A DNA stretch of 39,838 bases, from positions 1 through 39,838 of the IMG/VR virus record IMGVR_UViG_3300031260_000020; one strand, given 5' to 3'. The notes beneath the pieces were generated by a model. The model saw only the letters and a program-made list of their open reading frames with translations, did no database searches and was not told the DNA's origin. The translations under genes and the position numbers were made by a program. Below, piece after piece: positions 8,851 to 16,999 of this stretch. This DNA comes from a virus. How positions within the stretch are numbered: the first letter of the stretch is position 1; every line of letters starts with the position of its first letter.

Positions 8851-9360
8851 TCAGTATTCAAACTTGAATAAATACACCCCGGCGCTAGGTACGCCATTCG
8901 TGGCCACTGCATTCCAGGTAATTTTCACCGAAATATAGCCTCCCGATTTGAGAAATTGGAAGGTTTCTAGCGGGCCGATTATGAGACTTGCGGTGTCAGT
9001 GCCAGTCAGGGTTTCGGAGAGAGACCCTTTCGAAGCCCCTCCAAAGTCACCCGGGAGAATTTCGATAACTATACTGGTTGCATAAGCTGTGGGTGAAGCG
9101 TCGGAGAGTTCTGGGTCTATCTTGAACATAATGCCGATCCGCGGCGAGTCATACGCGAAATTGAATGTGCAGGCGTATGTATCTGTCGAGACATTGGTTG
9201 AGGTCGTGGCTACCAGCGTGAGAGTTGCCATATCGCTCAAGTCGAACTCCACGAAATCTCGTCCTGTGACTTCGACCGGGGTGGCTGTGATGGTCGTACC
9301 AAAAGTAAGCCCTCCAACTAGGAGGGCGATAACAACAAATAGCGTTGCAAGTTTTTTCAT
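8851..9360 (-). CDS. Signal-peptide protein of unknown function encoded between capsid and connector genes
   Basis: N-terminus MKKLATLFVVIALLVGGLTFGTTITA is signal-peptide/TM-like; Thr/Ser-rich beta-type body. Confidence 0.5.
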   Translation of the reverse strand: MKKLATLFVVIALLVGGLTFGTTITATPVEVTGRDFVEFDLSDMATLTLVATTSTNVSTDTYACTFNFAYDSPRIGIMFKIDPELSDASPTAYATSIVIEILPGDFGGASKGSLSETLTGTDTASLIIGPLETFQFLKSGGYISVKITWNAVATNGVPSAGVYLFKFEY

Positions 9361-9371
9361 GATATCACCTC

Positions 9372-10214
9372 TTAAGCCTTCGCCACAAGAAGATCGACGA
9401 GGCAGGCTGGCTGGACTACTTTGCGACCGTACACATAGAGCCCTTTAATCGCATCTGCAAACATCTTCTCGACTCTGTATGCCTCGGTCTTGTTGACCTG
9501 ACCAGCAAAACTAATAGCCTCTCTGGTCCCGGCGAGAACGTGGTAGTCTGTGCCTCCGGCATCGATATCGAGGTTGTTCGACCAGAGTACAGAGAATCCG
9601 GCGACTACGGGGACAACTCCTGTGGCCATATAGTTCTGCCACGCCTGCTTGTAATCGTCGTCTTTGAGAAGAACTCCGTGATACCAGGGCGGAATGACTA
9701 TCCATCTACCCTCTCTGGGAACGTTGTGCTCATCCATCTTAACACCAACATCGACTATGAGGTCATAGGGGTTTTCATTTCCCACTGCGTTGCCCACAGA
9801 GTAGGCGGCCCCGGCATTGTCCATCGTTATGCCCGCATCTCCGTGAAGACCTGCGACATCCTGGTCAATCAGGTCCGCAAGAGCGTATGCCGCTCTGGCC
9901 ATAGCTTTATCCATGAGCGTCACGTTCGACTGGGCGGCGTCCACGTCATCGACGTAGAAGTTGTAATAGTGGAGCTGGTCGATGAGCAGGAGCTGTTGGG
10001 CGGAATCGAGCTGGTCAGGATCCGCGATCGCGACGTTTTTAACGTAAGGCTTTACTGTAATGTTGCCTATCTGGTTGATTCTAACTGTATCTCCGGCGGC
10101 TTTAATCTCGCCTTCGTAATCTGTATTCACGAGCTGTTTGAACACGAGATTCTTGTCGAGATGCCGCTGAAGTCTTGTGCTCCATATTTCGGGAATGAAG
10201 TTATCTACTGGCAT
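9372..10214 (-). CDS. Major capsid protein
   Basis: 280 aa, immediately downstream of the scaffold gene; N-terminus MPVDNFIPEIWS... typical of capsid proteins. Confidence 0.65.
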   Translation of the reverse strand: MPVDNFIPEIWSTRLQRHLDKNLVFKQLVNTDYEGEIKAAGDTVRINQIGNITVKPYVKNVAIADPDQLDSAQQLLLIDQLHYYNFYVDDVDAAQSNVTLMDKAMARAAYALADLIDQDVAGLHGDAGITMDNAGAAYSVGNAVGNENPYDLIVDVGVKMDEHNVPREGRWIVIPPWYHGVLLKDDDYKQAWQNYMATGVVPVVAGFSVLWSNNLDIDAGGTDYHVLAGTREAISFAGQVNKTEAYRVEKMFADAIKGLYVYGRKVVQPACLVDLLVAKA

Positions 10215-10229
10215 TTCTGTTCACCTTCC

Positions 10230-10844
10230 TTAAAGTTTAATTTTTCCTTCTTCAAATAGCTTGTTAAATTTGGCCGGGTCTTTCTTGGCCATTTCCCTTG
10301 CCTGTTCCTTAGAAATCATTCCTGGCACGGGTTCGGGATTCGCGGGTTCGCGGCCGTTATTCTTGAGCAGTTGCTCCGTGAGCGTTTTTTTGTAGCTTTC
10401 CAAAACCTGCTCATATGCGGCGAGGGTCTTTTCTGTGCTCTCTTCGTCAGAGCCGATCAGGTTATCCACGATATCAACGGGAAGCTTCTTTTCGGAGAGC
10501 TTCTTGATGGCGAGATTCTTGAGACTTTCTTTTTTTCTGGCCGCTGCCTCCTCATTGAGCCTCTGCTCAAGCTCCCTGATCTTCTTCTGTTCGGGTGTCT
10601 CTTCCGGATTGACTTTCGCGATTTCTTCGTCCACCAGTTTCTTGAGGTTGTTCGCCTTCCAGGTCTCAAGACCCTTCGTATGGAAAGAATCGCGGTAGCT
10701 TTTGAATATGTCGTTCTTCTCGACGAATTCACCCACATTGTCTTTAGTGACGGTCGCCAATGGGTTGAACTTCGATGTGAATTCCTTTACTTCTGGTGCT
10801 TCGATATTCGTTTTGATTAGTTCCAACGCTTCTTTGAGTTCCAT
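10230..10844 (-). CDS. Scaffolding protein
   Basis: 204 aa, Lys/Glu-rich predicted coiled coil, located between head morphogenesis and capsid genes. Confidence 0.6.
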   Translation of the reverse strand: MELKEALELIKTNIEAPEVKEFTSKFNPLATVTKDNVGEFVEKNDIFKSYRDSFHTKGLETWKANNLKKLVDEEIAKVNPEETPEQKKIRELEQRLNEEAAARKKESLKNLAIKKLSEKKLPVDIVDNLIGSDEESTEKTLAAYEQVLESYKKTLTEQLLKNNGREPANPEPVPGMISKEQAREMAKKDPAKFNKLFEEGKIKL

Positions 10845-10967
10845 TTATATATCTCCTGTCCCTCAGAGTGCCACATGCCCTCAGAGTGGTTTGTATTGTT
10901 CATGAAAAAGCCCCAGCGTATAGGCACCGGGGCAGGGAGGTGAGAATGAAGAAAGTACGTGTCTTGT

Positions 10968-11273
10968 TTAGAAAAACTTGTTTATGTTATCTGTTGCTTC
11001 TGAAAGTGATTCAGCAATCTTCTCTGCAAGCTGGTCAATTTCTTTCTCAGCCCCATCTAAGTTCAAAGTTACGCCCAAACAGTTTGGATGCTCCGGTTCT
11101 TTTACTTCCGGTAGCTTGTTCCAGTTGTAGAACACTTCCTTCATTTTCAGATACAGCTCTGCCGAATACTCTGCTCTTCTCTCACCCAGAGCTTTGACTA
11201 TCTCGTGCATTTCATGTGCATTTAGTTCAAGTGTCACCTTTCTCAAACTTACCCCTCCTTCTGTTTCTTCCAT
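10968..11273 (-). CDS. Hypothetical protein
   Basis: 101-aa ORF. Confidence 0.3.
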   Translation of the reverse strand: MEETEGGVSLRKVTLELNAHEMHEIVKALGERRAEYSAELYLKMKEVFYNWNKLPEVKEPEHPNCLGVTLNLDGAEKEIDQLAEKIAESLSEATDNINKFF

Positions 11274-13003
11274 TCGCTGTATGTGATATAGTCGCTTATT
11301 CCTTTACCCTGAATCATTCTCGTTCTAGGTTCGCTGCCTTCAAACACGAATATAGTTGTGCACCGGCAATTGTGTGTTATAATACCTTTGTAGATGTCTT
11401 TGTCATTTGAAGACGCTAAATACCATCCGACTTGAGTTTGGAGGTTATAGATTTGGCCGCTAAAAGGGAAGACGTCAATATCAACGATCTTATCGCTAAA
11501 TATCTTCAAGGCTTTTCTGTCAAAGCCCTTTCCGAGTTTTTTAATATTTCCAGAACCGCTATCATCCCTAGACTCAGAAGAGCAGGTATCAGACCTCGCA
11601 ATAGAAGTGAGGCCATGTATCTCAGAATGGCCCAAACCACTTCTGAAGAAAAAGCTCGCCTTGCCGAAAAGGCTCACGATGCTGTTCGTGGCAAGCCTAA
11701 ATCCTTCAAAGCACTTGCTAAGCAAGCCAAAAAGAGGCAACTTACACATTCTCAAGTGGGCAAAGGAGAATATTTGCTTGCTTCTTGGCTTGAAGAAAGA
11801 GGACTTTCTCCGGTTCTTCAAGAAGCCGTTGGCAAGTACAACATCGACATTTCCTGCTGCCCCGTCGCCGTGGAATTGCTTGTCAACGCCTCGAACCCTT
11901 TTGCTAGGGCAACTGATAGAAAGAAAATTGAATACCTTACCAACCGAAATTGGACGGTTATTTATGTTTGGGTTACTAAAAGACACTTTCTTTCTGAAGA
12001 GGCCGCAGAGTATATCGTCTCCCTTTTTGAGAGAACACATTCCGACCCAACCCTTAGGGGTAGCTATTGGGTGATTAGGGGTAGCGGCGAACTCTATGCC
12101 ACTAGCTGTTCTAATTCTAATTAATGTACCTGAATACTCTCTCTTTGTGGCGGCTTCAATCTTGTTGCTACATATTATGGTGTCTTCGGGAATACAGTTG
12201 ATGTCTTCAGACGCGACTCCGAACATCCCCGGGGCCTTAGTCTTGAGACCTCGAATGTGAAAGTATCCGTCCTTATCTTCGATCTGACCGTCTAGCGCTC
12301 TGTGAGTGTCACGAGTCTTGCTGTCGAGTGTGGCCACCCACATTCTCTTGGCTTCGACCCCTTTCTCCTGCATCTTCTGCATGGCTTCGAGCTGGGCCTC
12401 TTCCTTGCATCTGTGGCTCTCAGTCCATATGATTCTGGTGGCTTTGACATAGTTATTCTCAAGCGCGGCCTTTAACCGATCCGCAGTCTTGAAGTAACTT
12501 TCACCTTTAATGAGACCTTGCGTGACTTCCTGACGGATTCGCCAGAGGATCTCCTGACGGTTCTTTTCAAGAATCTCGGTGAGTGTGAGGCCCGAGACTG
12601 GATTCTGAATAGCCTTCTTGATGTAGTCTTTCGGGAGCTGATACCATCTGAGATTGATTCCTGTCGCCTGTTCTGCGATCCAGCCCATGCGGTTGTAGCC
12701 TTCTGAATAAACCTCAAATAAAAGAGTCTGGACCTCTCTCGCCTGAGTACGTGAGAGTTCTAGAATCGCTGCGTCGAGATCTTTCTGCATCTTTCTCAGA
12801 CGGTCGTACTTCTGCATCTCGGCCAGCGTGAGCTTGCCGCTTCTTGAGAAAGTCTTGTAGTATTTCTCGAGCTGCTCTTTCGTGGCCTTGAGCGATTCGC
12901 GGTAGGCTTTCTCGAGTTCCTTCAACTGGCGCTTCGTGAATCCGTCGTACCATCGCTCGAAGTCGTCGAAAGCGCCCTTAATTGTTAGCGCCATCGCCCT
13001 CAT
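11249..13003 (-). CDS. Head morphogenesis (minor head) protein interrupted by an intein
   Basis: Follows the portal gene; contains Hint-type boundaries: ...SEDIN/CIPEDTIICSN...TPNHPI... and ...DIYKGIITHN/CRCTT. Confidence 0.65.
   Translation of the reverse strand: MRAMALTIKGAFDDFERWYDGFTKRQLKELEKAYRESLKATKEQLEKYYKTFSRSGKLTLAEMQKYDRLRKMQKDLDAAILELSRTQAREVQTLLFEVYSEGYNRMGWIAEQATGINLRWYQLPKDYIKKAIQNPVSGLTLTEILEKNRQEILWRIRQEVTQGLIKGESYFKTADRLKAALENNYVKATRIIWTESHRCKEEAQLEAMQKMQEKGVEAKRMWVATLDSKTRDTHRALDGQIEDKDGYFHIRGLKTKAPGMFGVASEDINCIPEDTIICSNKIEAATKREYSGTLIRIRTASGIEFAATPNHPIATPKGWVGMCSLKKGDDILCGLFRKKVSFSNPNINNRPISVGKVFNFLSISCPSKRVRGVDKQFHGDGAAGNVDVVLANGFLKNRRKSSFFKPRSKQIFSFAHLRMCKLPLFGLLSKCFEGFRLATNSIVSLFGKASFFFRSGLGHSEIHGLTSIARSDTCSSESRDDSGSGNIKKLGKGFDRKALKIFSDKIVDIDVFPFSGQIYNLQTQVGWYLASSNDKDIYKGIITHNCRCTTIFVFEGSEPRTRMIQGKGISDYITYSEWKKQKEG
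11369..12196 (-). mobile_element. Intein (about 276 aa) within the head morphogenesis gene
   Basis: N-terminal Cys then block B TPNHP; C-terminal ITHN followed by Cys+1; central region is low-complexity on the sense strand. Confidence 0.6.
11432..12124 (+). CDS. Antisense ORF inside the intein: HTH plus PD-(D/E)xK (Vsr/DUF559-like) endonuclease-like protein (TTG start)
   Basis: 230 aa with protein-like composition; FNISRTAIIPRLRRAGI (HTH) and GEYLLASWLEERGL...YNIDISCCPVAVELL...NRNWTVIYVW resemble Vsr/DUF559-type nucleases. Confidence 0.4.
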   Translation: MSLEVIDLAAKREDVNINDLIAKYLQGFSVKALSEFFNISRTAIIPRLRRAGIRPRNRSEAMYLRMAQTTSEEKARLAEKAHDAVRGKPKSFKALAKQAKKRQLTHSQVGKGEYLLASWLEERGLSPVLQEAVGKYNIDISCCPVAVELLVNASNPFARATDRKKIEYLTNRNWTVIYVWVTKRHFLSEEAAEYIVSLFERTHSDPTLRGSYWVIRGSGELYATSCSNSN

Positions 13004-14336
13004 CCTCTTCGAGATTTACAGCCGGGTAGTAGTTCATCTGCTTCTCTCTCTGCTCATCCATCATCTTGATGACGGCTTTTGGATCGTCAATGAACGATGC
13101 CAGACCATATAGTATTTCGTCAGGGATGATGCCCTTGAGAGCGGTGAGAACCTGAGCGTCTTTCTCCAGACTGACAGGGAGGTTCCTGGTGAATCTCTGT
13201 GTGACGTGAAGCCAGTCAAGATTGAACGCTGGGGCCGAGGCCAGGACCTTGAACATTCTCTGATTGCTCGCCGAGAACTGTCGCTCTGCCGTAATGCACT
13301 TATTCTCAAGCGACAGGAGCTTGTATTTTCTCGACTCGCCCGATATATCGCTGGTGAATTCTTTGTCGGCGAAGTTGACAGACTTTGAGAATCTGAGAAT
13401 ATTTGCCTCAAGACGATTGAGGTGTGAATCCACGGCCTCGATGTTGATGTTCTTCTCGATGAAGGCCATATCGGAGCCTTCAGGGAGGTTGTAAGCCCCT
13501 GTCCTTAGAGCTTCCTTGATGACTTCCTTTGTGAGTTCCGCGCCGAGAACTTTCATATATGCCAGTCTCCATTGCTCAAGCTCGGAGTCGAGGTCCGACT
13601 CCTTCCTGTCGTATGCGTCGATGAGACTGAGGACCTTCTCGGCGTCACCCAGACGTTCGAGGTTGTTTGGGTATTCGATCAAAGGAACGTAATCAAAGAA
13701 GTGAGTTTGAGGGTTCAGTTTTTCCGTGTCGTCCAGGACGTAGCCATTCTCGGTCTTGATGTAGTATGTCACCTTCTCTTTGTCATACCACTCGACTCGT
13801 CCCCTTGTTTCCGTTGAGCCGTCGGGTTTCACGTACTCCATGTCGTAGTATCTGAGAGCGAACTGGGCCTCGTCGATAGAGCGATCCATTACCCAGATGC
13901 ATTCCCAGGGCCAGATGTTCATAGTGCGGACCTTCGCCTCGGTGTCGACATACAGAAGCCTCGCAGCCGTACCACAGATTGAGGCCAGTTTCACGGTTTC
14001 AGAGTCTAGAAGTTCAAGCCGGTTTCTCAGCTCAAAGTCCTCGAAGTCTTTCGAGTTCGTCTCGTACACTGCCGGGATTCCCATGAAGTACCCAACTTTC
14101 GTGTCAATGATCTCTGAGAAGAAGTCGTTGTTCAGCTTGTTGTTTATCTTCGTGTCATCCGTGACCGAATATGAACGCGTGAATATAGGAACTCCAGCCT
14201 CGGACGTTTTATACCTCTCATACAGGCTCTTCATTGTCTCATGCCTGCCGCTGTTTTCATCTATGAGATCCATGATTATTTGTGATGTCACTTCACCGTT
14301 GATTCTTATCAGTTCGCGAATGGTATCAAGTGTCAT
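12978..14336 (-). CDS. Portal protein
   Basis: 452 aa, directly downstream of large terminase. Confidence 0.7.
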   Translation of the reverse strand: MTLDTIRELIRINGEVTSQIIMDLIDENSGRHETMKSLYERYKTSEAGVPIFTRSYSVTDDTKINNKLNNDFFSEIIDTKVGYFMGIPAVYETNSKDFEDFELRNRLELLDSETVKLASICGTAARLLYVDTEAKVRTMNIWPWECIWVMDRSIDEAQFALRYYDMEYVKPDGSTETRGRVEWYDKEKVTYYIKTENGYVLDDTEKLNPQTHFFDYVPLIEYPNNLERLGDAEKVLSLIDAYDRKESDLDSELEQWRLAYMKVLGAELTKEVIKEALRTGAYNLPEGSDMAFIEKNINIEAVDSHLNRLEANILRFSKSVNFADKEFTSDISGESRKYKLLSLENKCITAERQFSASNQRMFKVLASAPAFNLDWLHVTQRFTRNLPVSLEKDAQVLTALKGIIPDEILYGLASFIDDPKAVIKMMDEQREKQMNYYPAVNLEEDEGDGANN

Positions 14337-14340
14337 AGCA

Positions 14341-15585
14341 TTACCTCCATGCTGAGTATCCGGCTGTGATTTTTCTTGGTCTCGTGAATATTCCGTACCT
14401 GAGAGCGTCCATGCAGTGGTCGTTCTCTTTCAGCGGCTTATCTTCACCACGTTCGGCCGCCTTGTTATCCCAGGCGTAACCATAGAACTCTTTGATCGTT
14501 TCCTTGCAGGAAGAATGAATCTTGATGTGACCTTTATCCAACTTATTGGCCACGGTGCGGATCCCATCAAGAACGTCGTTTTTAGCCTGGGTGACTTTGA
14601 ACCCGTGCTGCTGAAGTTCCACGATGAAAGAAGCCGCCGAGGGATCGACTATGATCTCCGTAGTCCGCTTCTCGAATTCGTTCCTCTGGAGAAAGACTTC
14701 GAGATCTTCTCGATACTGGGTGTCGGTCTTCTGTTTCCCTGTCTCTCTCCCTGAATGGTAGTATTCCGAGAGAATGAAGGTATCTTCTCCAGCGTCGCCC
14801 ATCGCCAGAAAGACCGTGGGATTTCCGGTCCCGTAGTCGCAGGCGACGTACTTTCGACTCAGAGAGCCCGGAAGGCTTGCCACCACGTGTTTCTCCTCTG
14901 AGAACATATCGTAGATGATCCCCTCTGCTATGACCCACTGACCGAGAATGAACCTGCGATACCACATACCCGAGTAAGCTTGTTTCAGTTCTTCCTTGTA
15001 TCTTTCATCCAGGGTGAGGTTGTCCTCGAGGTTGAAGTGCCAGTGACGATAGCCCTTCGTTCCCGCCTGGTCGATATATTCCTTCTTGATGAAATGGTTC
15101 GGATTGTCCGGGTTCGTGGTCCAGATGGCCTTCGCGCCAGGCAGGGACATTCTGTTGATTGCCTGCTTGATGAACGTTTCGTGGTGAAGCGTGGCCTCGT
15201 CTGCGTACCAGCCCGCTATCGTCATTCCTCTGATCGCTTCTTCCGAAGTGACCTTGTCAGCTCCGCGACAATAACAGACTTTATCGCCGGCTCGAGAATG
15301 AAAGATTAACTGCGGACCACCTTTTGGTGACTTCTGATATGTAGCCCTGCGGTCTCCAACAGTTTTAACCAAATCTTTAACCACGTTTCGGTACAGCGAG
15401 TCTGTGGATTCGCCGCTCATGAGAAACTGGTCGTATGGATTCGTGAGAACAAAGTACAACCATGCCACGTTGGCCGCGATTGTCTTTCCCGACCTGACAG
15501 ACCCCTCGAGAATATTGATGAAAGAATCGAAGCCATCTATAACATCAAGCTGTTTTGAGCTGAATGGTTTCCAGTCGCAACTCAT
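14341..15585 (-). CDS. terL: Terminase large subunit
   Basis: Walker A-like GSVRSGKT, Walker B-like WYADEAT, C-terminal nuclease-like ENDHCMDALRY. Confidence 0.85.
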   Translation of the reverse strand: MSCDWKPFSSKQLDVIDGFDSFINILEGSVRSGKTIAANVAWLYFVLTNPYDQFLMSGESTDSLYRNVVKDLVKTVGDRRATYQKSPKGGPQLIFHSRAGDKVCYCRGADKVTSEEAIRGMTIAGWYADEATLHHETFIKQAINRMSLPGAKAIWTTNPDNPNHFIKKEYIDQAGTKGYRHWHFNLEDNLTLDERYKEELKQAYSGMWYRRFILGQWVIAEGIIYDMFSEEKHVVASLPGSLSRKYVACDYGTGNPTVFLAMGDAGEDTFILSEYYHSGRETGKQKTDTQYREDLEVFLQRNEFEKRTTEIIVDPSAASFIVELQQHGFKVTQAKNDVLDGIRTVANKLDKGHIKIHSSCKETIKEFYGYAWDNKAAERGEDKPLKENDHCMDALRYGIFTRPRKITAGYSAWR

Positions 15586-16101: not shown

Positions 16102-16389
16102 CTATCTCAATTTTTCTAATGCACTGCCAGAGTTCGTACATGATTGCTCCTCATCAAGTTCCTTCTCCTGGTTCTCCCTCATCTGTGCGAAGAGTCTGAG
16201 ACACCGCCATGAGCAGAACTCGGCTCCAGACTCCAAGATTTTCCAGTGATGATTCATAGTCTCTACTTTTCCGCAATAGTCGCACCGATGAACCAGCAAA
16301 ATGACCTCCAAATAAAAGGGAGCCCGAAGGCTCCCTGGTGTGGAAGGAAGAAGGTAATGGAAGCGGGCCGAGAAGTCGAATCTCGACAA
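16102..16389 (-). CDS. Hypothetical Cys-containing small protein
   Basis: 95-aa ORF; true start may be internal. Confidence 0.25.
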   Translation of the reverse strand: MSRFDFSARFHYLLPSTPGSLRAPFYLEVILLVHRCDYCGKVETMNHHWKILESGAEFCSWRCLRLFAQMRENQEKELDEEQSCTNSGSALEKLR

Positions 16390-16485
16390 TCGCCTTATGA
16401 GAGCGATCTGCGTCCGCCGCTGCCCGCTTTGAAAAACGGGGCAGTTTCATTGAAGCCCCGCCGACCGAGAAACCCCGATCCATAT

Positions 16486-16907: not shown

Positions 16908-16999
16908 TGGGCGCAGCGAGAATCGAACTCGCAAGCAGCACACGATGCTGCTGTAATCTCTCGATTACTACGGTATCGGCCTGGCATACCATTGCGCCC
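16908..16999 (-). tRNA. tRNA-like gene with long variable arm (type II; possibly Ser, anticodon uncertain)
   Basis: Perfect 7-bp acceptor stem GGGCGCA/TGCGCCC, T-arm GCGAG-TTCGATT-CTCGC, extra-arm hairpin AGCAGCA-tcgtg-TGCTGCT; anticodon arm not canonical by hand folding. Confidence 0.45.

Follow-up and report, generated by a model that had tools for sequence, protein, structure and literature searches.

Introduction

Inteins that carry a nuclease gene on their complementary strand are rare but have been described before. Antisense LAGLIDADG genes within inteins have been known since 1998-2002, from Synechocystis DnaX and others (Gorbalenya 1998; Gogarten et al. 2002, as cited in 10.1101/2025.01.02.630785), and a recent preprint reports actinobacteriophage inteins with antisense LAGLIDADG or VSR-like endonucleases, MuF-like minor capsid hosts included (Gosselin, Arsenault and Gogarten, bioRxiv 10.1101/2025.01.02.630785). 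Here, a locus of this kind is analyzed in IMG/VR virus record IMGVR_UViG_3300031260_000020, of which the whole stretch of 39,838 nucleotides is called the window. The region at 11369..12196 is read, with a probability of about 80%, as a mobile class-1 intein that sits in a MuF-type minor head protein and whose homing endonuclease gene lies on the opposite strand. An earlier note, made from the letters of this stretch alone, had called such an arrangement unusual; rare it is, but the 2025 preprint and the older LAGLIDADG cases precede it, and what is new is the instance in the window together with several anatomical details.

The closest described systems are listed in the supplement of the preprint, where Vivi2 gp14, Angelicage gp15, Affeca gp15, Fosterous gp12 and Sejanus gp8 are tabulated as 'minor capsid, MuF-like ... 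VSR -1 ORF' (ORF, open reading frame). The window nuclease matched all five phages in tblastn with 33-40% identity over more than 90% of its length (E down to 7e-36), and in Vivi2 and Sejanus the match lies antisense to the annotated MuF coding sequence. As tabulated there, these inteins share with the window the host family, the class-1 intein, the -1 frame and a homologous nuclease; the HN|CRC insertion site was checked in Sejanus, not in Vivi2 or its relatives. The window differs from this set in belonging to a 46%-GC phage with a Bacillus/Staphylococcus-like portal, not to an actinobacteriophage. In the window, the splicing blocks B, F and G of the Hint domain are overlapped by the nuclease gene at both ends: by its last 44 codons on one side and by its start codon, ribosome-binding site and candidate -10 element on the other. 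As far as a term search showed, the main text of the preprint does not discuss start codons, ribosome-binding sites or the avoidance of stop codons. Compared with that main text, the spread outside actinobacteriophages and the statistics on stop avoidance with their free-standing control appear to be additions, as do the overlap of the nuclease gene and its signals with blocks B, F and G and the nested position of a free-standing copy. The antisense LAGLIDADG inteins, compared by description, likewise combine a contiguous intein with an endonuclease on the complementary strand; they differ in nuclease family (Vsr-like here) and in host genes.

Two further systems are related to the window locus. 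In the fractured genes described mainly from phage loci, a free-standing Vsr-like homing endonuclease gene lies between the halves of a split intein (Dassa et al. 2009, PMC2677866). As described there, they resemble the window in having a Vsr-related gene with its own expression signals at the usual position of the endonuclease domain, but host gene and intein are divided over two genes and joined by trans-splicing, whereas the sense frame of the window is continuous, with 0 stops, and its intein is contiguous. This continuity through the insert holds for the window and every embedded relative, and sets them apart from fractured genes. The second is I-Bth0305I, prototype of the EDxHD homing endonucleases, which is encoded by a recA group I intron of Bacillus phage 0305phi8-36 (Taylor et al. 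2011, PMC3239194; PDB 3R3P). It has the same two-part build, an N-terminal DNA-binding region followed by a C-terminal Vsr-like nuclease domain, and both proteins have a conserved Glu and a conserved Asp equivalent to E25 and D51 of Vsr. I-Bth0305I is, however, intron-encoded and carries NUMOD motifs, while the window nuclease is intein-associated and carries a helix-turn-helix (HTH), and the conserved His of EDxHD (H213) has no conserved counterpart in the window's nuclease family. The plus-strand ORF gave no significant direct match to I-Bth0305I in a PDB search with its single sequence. Because the composite Glu...Asp...x...His...Asp motif is incomplete, the nuclease is filed here as a relative with the Vsr fold and not as a strict EDxHD member.

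A predicted class-1 intein in a MuF-type minor head gene

The minus-strand ORF that contains the insert was assigned by Pfam (Phage_Mu_F at residues 156-270 of the 584-aa ORF, E = 7e-14) and by PHROG (phrog_115 'minor head protein', E = 5e-53), that is, to minor head / head morphogenesis families. A MuF protein identical to the 584-aa precursor was found on a JGI contig (P0034). The features of this strand are as follows.

11249..13003, minus strand: MuF / SPP1 gp7-type minor head (head morphogenesis) gene, 584-aa precursor including the intein (ORF list, Pfam, PHROG)
12197..13003, minus strand: N-extein, residues 1-269, ending ...GVASEDIN (alignment A3 with intein-free homologues)
11369..12196, minus strand: predicted class-1 intein, 276 aa, residues 270-545, Cys1...His-Asn, before the conserved MuF CRC motif
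11993..12196, minus strand: Hint N-terminal lobe, intein residues 1-68 (mean predicted local confidence, pLDDT, 69-90 in blocks of 10 residues)
12179..12196, minus strand: block A, CIPEDT
12068..12082, minus strand: block B, TPNHP
11513..11992, minus strand: sense-strand linker, intein residues 69-228, about 160 aa (pLDDT mostly <50)
11369..11512, minus strand: Hint C-terminal lobe, intein residues 229-276 (mean pLDDT 66-90 in blocks of 10 residues)
11435..11452, minus strand: block F, IYNLQT
11369..11386, minus strand: block G, GIITHN, the intein terminus
11249..11368, minus strand: C-extein (CRCTTIFVFEGSEP..., 39 aa and stop)

The junction was fixed by intein-free MuF proteins: P0035, which is 63% identical to the window N-extein, P0044 from Bacillus gobiensis and six others read ...EDIN|CRC... 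uninterrupted, and P0036, P0037 and P0061 carry a homologous insert at this position. Cys1 (Cys270, 12194..12196) directly follows SEDIN and Cys+1 of CRC lies at 11366..11368; both are invariant in alignment A4, together with T, N and H of block B and the terminal HN. With the intein-free homologues aligned across EDIN|CRC and the junction so defined, the proposal of the earlier note of an intein in the head morphogenesis protein at 11369-12196 holds in its coordinates and in its boundaries (Cys1, TPNHP and ITHN-Cys).

An AlphaFold model of the intein, built on a 9-sequence alignment, shows the Hint fold, with confident prediction at residues 1-68 and 229-276. For linker residues 69-228 the pLDDT is mostly <50, a value that rests on this 9-sequence alignment; the linker matches no endonuclease fold, and intein-endonuclease structures aligned with the model in its Hint part only. 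A homing endonuclease fold in the sense interior, the finding that the earlier note named as fatal to its proposal, was thus not seen. S, F, K, G, L and R are abundant in the linker, a composition that an ordinary gene would yield when read in antisense. The 276 aa that had been given as the size of the interior are those of the whole intein; an open and unstructured interior is real, with a length of about 160 aa (11513..11992).

In Pfam, the window intein matched PF14890 (Intein_splicing) with 22.6 bits and E = 1e-4, below the gathering score of 35.8, the match being split in two by the 160-aa linker; the homologues P0036-P0038 have a precomputed PF14890 hit. The shortfall concerns a detection threshold and no defining property of inteins. 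It is nevertheless one of two points in favor of an insert that is not spliced at all, being tolerated by MuF or processed by a protease, with the sense frame open only for the sake of the 39-aa C-terminal segment or to avoid downstream polarity. The other point is that one relative (L093) ends in Ser-Asn instead of His-Asn. Against this stand Cys1, TPNH, His-Asn and Cys+1, all present and invariant in the alignment, the modelled Hint fold, and the minus frame, which is the more conserved frame across the Hint lobes. Moreover, the insert splits the most conserved MuF motif, EDIN|CRC, which 276 unspliced residues would disrupt. Lack of splicing is considered very improbable, and the insert continues to be read as a splicing intein.

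The opposite strand encodes a predicted Vsr-like nuclease

The longest plus-strand ORF in the region, 11432..12124 with a TTG start and 230 aa, is present and intact as the earlier note had listed it. Its start is likely further in: a 98% identical protein (P0001) was called at 223 aa, which corresponds to TTG 11453 rather than TTG 11432. The features of this strand are as follows.

11453..12124, plus strand: putative homing-endonuclease gene, 223 aa from TTG 11453 (homologues, AlphaFold, substitutions)
11480..11746, plus strand: N-terminal helical DNA-binding region, HTH at residues ~17-50 and more helices to ~105 (AlphaFold secondary structure)
11750..12109, plus strand: Vsr-like (DUF559-fold) nuclease domain, ending with the C-terminal beta-hairpin YWVIRGSGEL
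11768..11770, plus strand: E113, nuclease domain, conserved
11840..11842, plus strand: N137, nuclease domain, conserved
11846..11848, plus strand: D139, nuclease domain, conserved
11873..11875, plus strand: E148, nuclease domain, conserved

Homologues of the nuclease were found as 33 called proteins (E down to 1e-141), some of them named very-short-patch-repair endonuclease by their source, in 125 phage records (tblastn) and in 244 IMG/VR stretches (profile search). The IMG/VR relatives were retrieved with a 10-sequence subset (A2) of the 32-sequence alignment A1, and the best 80 of the 244 stretches were inspected, in which split or free-standing forms may be under-sampled. One IMG/VR record of 5.3 kb (L009, UViG 3300023207_000496) has a nuclease gene with an identical protein translation. 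The ORF is thus far from the case without homologues that would have spoken against the earlier note.

The model of the plus-strand protein reached a pLDDT of 92.5 and a predicted TM-score (pTM) of 0.74 (AlphaFold), and the fold search showed an intact alpha/beta nuclease fold of the Vsr type. The A1 profile gave a tentative match to 3hrl_A (E = 0.0024) and matched, with its N-terminal part, the HTH-repeat protein 2lvs_A (E = 1e-7) and HTH domains of resolvases and transposases. In A1, an HTH-like N-terminus and a conserved C-terminus (DPS..G.YRVIRGSGEL) are seen; N137, D139, A146 and E148 (YNIDI...PVAVEL) are invariant in the 32 homologues and E113 is nearly so. A PDB search with the single sequence gave no match. 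On five independent grounds, namely its homologues and predicted fold and, as shown below, the substitution pattern, the translation signals and the free-standing copies, it is concluded that the plus-strand ORF is a real gene for a nuclease-like protein with an HTH and a Vsr-like domain, which agrees with the description in the earlier note.

Within the family, some members are extended. P0010, P0011, P0015 (L007, 4001..5017), P0018, P0020 and P0024 carry a C-terminal extension with a conserved, zinc-ribbon-like CHCGCG motif, and in several homologues, mostly those with this extension (e.g. P0010, P0015 and P0018), the N-terminal HTH module is duplicated. In L007 (GC 0.70), the Hint N-lobe has some 45 additional aa directly behind block A, as a counterpart to the extension. 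From the gene calls, P0015 was considered as a free-standing gene; this was rejected, as the ORF listing places it antisense within a 649-aa MuF-plus-intein ORF that had been broken up by the gene caller.

Both frames avoid each other's stop codons

In both ORFs the low end of the codons lies at 2 mod 3, so that the two are exactly codon-aligned in antisense (frame -1). Because of this alignment, stops of the sense frame appear as TTA, CTA or TCA in the plus ORF, and reciprocally. Expected numbers of such codons were computed from each locus's own Leu/Ser codon usage. In the window, 7.8 TTA/CTA/TCA codons were expected in the plus ORF and 0 were observed (P = 1.6e-4); from the sense Leu/Ser usage, 8.8 plus-frame stops were expected and again 0 were observed (P = 5e-5). 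The other two antisense frames of the window contain 29 and 7 stops.

The same was found among the relatives. In 62 non-redundant embedded loci with a GC content of 0.36-0.70, 287 TTA/CTA/TCA codons were expected in the plus ORF and 0 observed, a contrast whose pooled probability is no true P value and overstates independence, as the compared loci share descent. Across all embedded representatives, with loci down to GC 0.36, 356 plus-frame stops were expected and 1 was observed, which sits upstream of the real start. The codon-aligned antisense frame was free of stops across the nuclease match in 85 of the 88 fetched loci and in the window, and the other two antisense frames of the fetched loci contained 3-35 stops each. 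The open sense frame spans ~300 to 1300 aa in the fetched loci and is shorter at contig ends. A scan of genome contigs, for which a narrow search pattern was used, yielded three prophage-type loci (from Bacteroidota, Streptosporangiaceae and Nitrospinia assemblies), in which the sense frame is likewise open. Since synonymous sites are saturated among the loci, the absence of stops must be continuously maintained. The sense frame is therefore actively kept open, as the earlier note had supposed, and the two frames mutually avoid each other's stop codons.

The interior is selected in the plus frame

Substitutions were counted in 26 close pairs (80-98.5% nucleotide identity) over plus-ORF residues 28-186, an interior slightly wider than the linker. 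Read in the plus frame, 940 changes were synonymous and 208 non-synonymous; read in the sense frame, 168 were synonymous and 980 non-synonymous. At plus-codon positions 1/2/3, the single-base changes numbered 133/49/966, i.e. 966 of 1148 fell on third positions. Correspondingly, over alignment residues 23-189 the 62 non-redundant loci had a mean column BLOSUM score of 1.72 in the plus frame against 0.62 in the sense frame. In the end regions, which overlap the Hint lobes, conservation is higher in the minus frame, and second codon positions hardly vary, with 2 of the 357 single-base changes counted there. The interior plus frame is thus under purifying selection, and the sense frame is only held open there and otherwise unconstrained.

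These counts bear on the reverse assignment, in which the sense interior is a true, degenerate in-frame endonuclease domain and the plus-strand ORF a chance or 'shadow' ORF. Long antisense ORFs do arise by chance in high-GC genomes, and the sense interior can be aligned among relatives (phrog_15127, E = 1e-28; FHGDG..NVDVV motif). But the third-position bias lies in the plus codons, the plus-strand protein is modelled with high confidence as a Vsr-like fold while the sense interior stays below 50, and the plus frame is open down to GC 0.36. In addition, free-standing homologues exist whose antisense frame is closed. The sense motifs FHGDG and NVDVV were themselves considered as functional and were rejected: read in antisense, the nuclease motifs PVAVEL and YNIDI give exactly QFHGDG and NVDVV, whose high third-position identity follows from two-fold degenerate codons. 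A shadow ORF is already contradicted by these data and is barely credible; the plus strand is taken to hold the gene.

Nuclease gene and its proposed expression signals overlap the splicing blocks

The nuclease gene extends beyond the linker on both sides. Intein residues 25-68, block B included, are overlapped in antisense by the gene's last 44 codons (residues 187-230); this C-terminus contains the confidently modelled beta-hairpin, in which WVIRG is the antisense of TPNHP. At the other end, the gene begins opposite the C-terminal Hint lobe, which is overlapped by its ribosome-binding site, its start and its first ~20 codons. Two signals were located there.

11440..11444, plus strand: Shine-Dalgarno sequence GGAGG, antisense of the block F Asn-Leu-Gln codons AAC CTC CAA
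11373..11383, plus strand: candidate extended -10 promoter TGTGTTATAAT (TRTG-n-TATAAT), antisense of the block G Ile-Ile-Thr-His codons ATT ATA ACA CAC

The GGAGG lies 8 nt before TTG 11453. In the block F sense motif (H)VYNLQT, a CTC codon for the Leu gives GGAG on the plus strand, and CTC is used for this Leu in 30 of the 35 non-redundant loci, against a background share of 0.23. Two codons on from the Leu, the block F His is encoded by CAT in 22 of 24 and by CAC in 2 of 24, which read ATG and GTG on the plus strand, 7-8 nt after GGAGG. Loci read without His at that residue have the start codon two codons further downstream. The translation signals of the nuclease gene are thus conserved.

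At the same spot in block G, TATAAT was found in 10 non-redundant loci, two of which have a GC of 0.60-0.66, where ATA codons are rare. From this conservation we infer that the -10 element may work as promoter of the nuclease gene. The consensus scan gave only weak terminator-like hairpins.

Distribution, polymorphism and free-standing copies

Every embedded copy occupies the same HN|CRC site. With phage PK2, a Jerseyvirus, as query, 348 phage records with a PK2-type MuF gene were found, almost all of Salmonella phages, and 58 of them have the intein. In most of the sampled intein-less records the match fell into two pieces, lacking 816 bp of the query, with exteins ~90% identical; the locus of this intein, polymorphic among Salmonella phages, is L002 2141..4000.

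A free-standing nuclease ORF is present in L005 (3990..4750), L006 and L069. The gene is convergent to an intein-less MuF (...GCDFG|CRCSAIWVLD*), overlaps the MuF 3' end and stop by 4 nt and sits 33 bp from the usual intein site. The free-standing homologue contains 13 TTA/CTA/TCA codons in 179 codons, whereas its nearest relatives, the embedded L039, L090 and L089 (58-48% identity; family median 32%), contain 0. In a rough midpoint-rooted neighbour-joining tree the free-standing copy is nested among embedded ones, which hints that free-standing copies escaped from inteins rather than invaded them, the tree being too crude for direction.

In L005, a promoter-like site (TTGACA-17 nt-TATACT) ends 6 nt before the ATG, and with so short a distance the mRNA may be leaderless. 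In L093, a Nitrospinia metagenome-assembled genome (MAG) contig (JAJDAT010000029.1), the element lies within a 1109-aa open frame resembling a portal-MuF fusion, and the intein terminus is Ser-Ser-Asn|Cys, not His-Asn|Cys. An ADP-ribosyltransferase domain (PF03496) is fused to many MuF homologues, with or without intein (P0038, P0054, P0075, P0080, P0082, P0084, P0088, P0089, P0091; L091). Several Salmonella phage records annotate the MuF ORF alone, at times as 'NAD+--asparagine ADP-ribosyltransferase'.

The polymorphism among Salmonella phages and the free-standing copy beside an intein-less MuF are indirect support for mobility, drawn from sequence comparison. A plus-strand protein that is real and selected might still not be, or no longer be, the homing enzyme of this intein, but a DNA-binding regulator or a nuclease against competitors or host DNA that is housed in the intein. 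In keeping with this, the family has no conserved His in the role of the Vsr/EDxHD general base, the preprint (10.1101/2025.01.02.630785) notes an apparently vertical inheritance of several groups of VSR-type inteins, and the phage collection holds no close intein-free relative of the window phage. On the other side, the acidic residues E113, D139 and E148 show little or no variation, the fold of the nuclease is intact, all embedded copies share one site, the Salmonella phages are polymorphic between exteins of ~90% identity, and a free-standing copy 33 bp from the site beside an intein-less MuF is typical of homing endonuclease genes. Such a role outside homing is regarded as unlikely, though less so than the other alternatives, and a homing endonuclease remains the preferred assignment.

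Proposed mechanism and weight of the evidence

The mechanism proposed here follows from the conserved residues and from knowledge of the families. The late MuF mRNA would be translated straight through the insert, and the Hint lobes (68 and 48 aa) would fold together around the structureless linker of ~160 aa. Splicing via Cys1, the block B T-x-x-H, the terminal His-Asn and Cys+1 would then restore ...EDIN-CRC... in MuF. The space of the canonical in-frame endonuclease domain would be read from the other strand to give the 223-aa HTH and Vsr-like nuclease, apparently under signals of its own written opposite Hint blocks G and F (TGnTATAAT as -10, GGAGG and TTG). In a mixed infection, MuF alleles without intein would be cleaved by the nuclease close to the sequence that codes for EDIN|CRC, and recombinational repair would copy the intein with the nuclease gene into the cut allele. 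Because the frames are codon-aligned, the nuclease gene and the linker are both barred from TTA/CTA/TCA, and no exception was seen.

Several observations weigh against this interpretation. The 32 homologues do not share the His that serves as general base in Vsr/EDxHD enzymes; in alignment A1 no conserved His follows E148 and the distal Asp (D162) is conserved only partly, so that the catalytic mechanism and even the activity of the nuclease are uncertain. Pfam and PHROG scans of the plus ORF gave sub-threshold matches only, such as MTES_1575 in Pfam (E = 0.013, 16 bits against a cut-off of 38.2). The window's start codon is TTG, a weaker codon. The consensus promoter scan, which needs a -35 match, found no plus-strand -35/-10 pair, and the -10 element was found outside that scan, by sequence reading and comparison of loci. 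In high-GC loci an open antisense frame is individually unremarkable, with a P(0) of 0.1-0.8. Megablast of window positions 9000..15000 against the phage collection found no nucleotide-level relative, and for that reason no close pair with and without intein is available for the window's phage lineage. The shared descent of the compared loci and the small alignment behind the linker model count on the same side.

A broader reading joins these elements: the nuclease gene and the Hint domain would be overprinted as one inseparable two-strand element, spread through the MuF genes of phages of at least four bacterial phyla, with an adaptive antisense orientation and with the free-standing copies as escapees. 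A host-type promoter would then express the nuclease early, before the opposing late transcription of MuF. This extension is put forward tentatively and is rather doubtful as a whole. If true, free-standing copies such as that of L005 would be escapees from inteins and not their ancestors, which reverses the direction in current models.

It has long been asked how inteins and homing endonucleases became associated, and the antisense state is intermediate between a mini-intein that has a free-standing endonuclease gene nearby and the canonical fused intein. Antisense-nuclease inteins are no actinobacteriophage curiosity, homologous elements being found in at least 244 IMG/VR stretches and 125 sequenced phages, including the 58 mostly Salmonella records. 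As intein-bearing and intein-free Salmonella phages grow on an easy host, splicing, antisense expression and homing are directly testable. Among natural examples of extended double coding in antisense the locus is also one of the cleaner ones, and the free-standing copy, in which stop avoidance has been lost, provides an internal control. Standard gene callers miss the antisense nuclease genes, and most phage records label the MuF ORF alone.

The phage of the window

The window, probably a whole metagenomic phage contig, has a GC content of 46%. The portal gene lies at 12978..14336, and its product is closest to portals of Bacillus and Staphylococcus phages (42-43% identity). By these comparisons the phage is of Bacillota type and not an actinobacteriophage. 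Genes for tRNA-Met (CAT; 16358..16428) and tRNA-Ser (CGA; 16908..16999) lie on the minus strand, ~2 kb beyond the portal gene. Downstream of MuF, a strong terminator-like hairpin at 10910..10933 on the minus strand (9 pairs, 7 of them G-C, then TTTTT) is located between a small ORF (10968..11273) and a 204-aa ORF (10230..10844).

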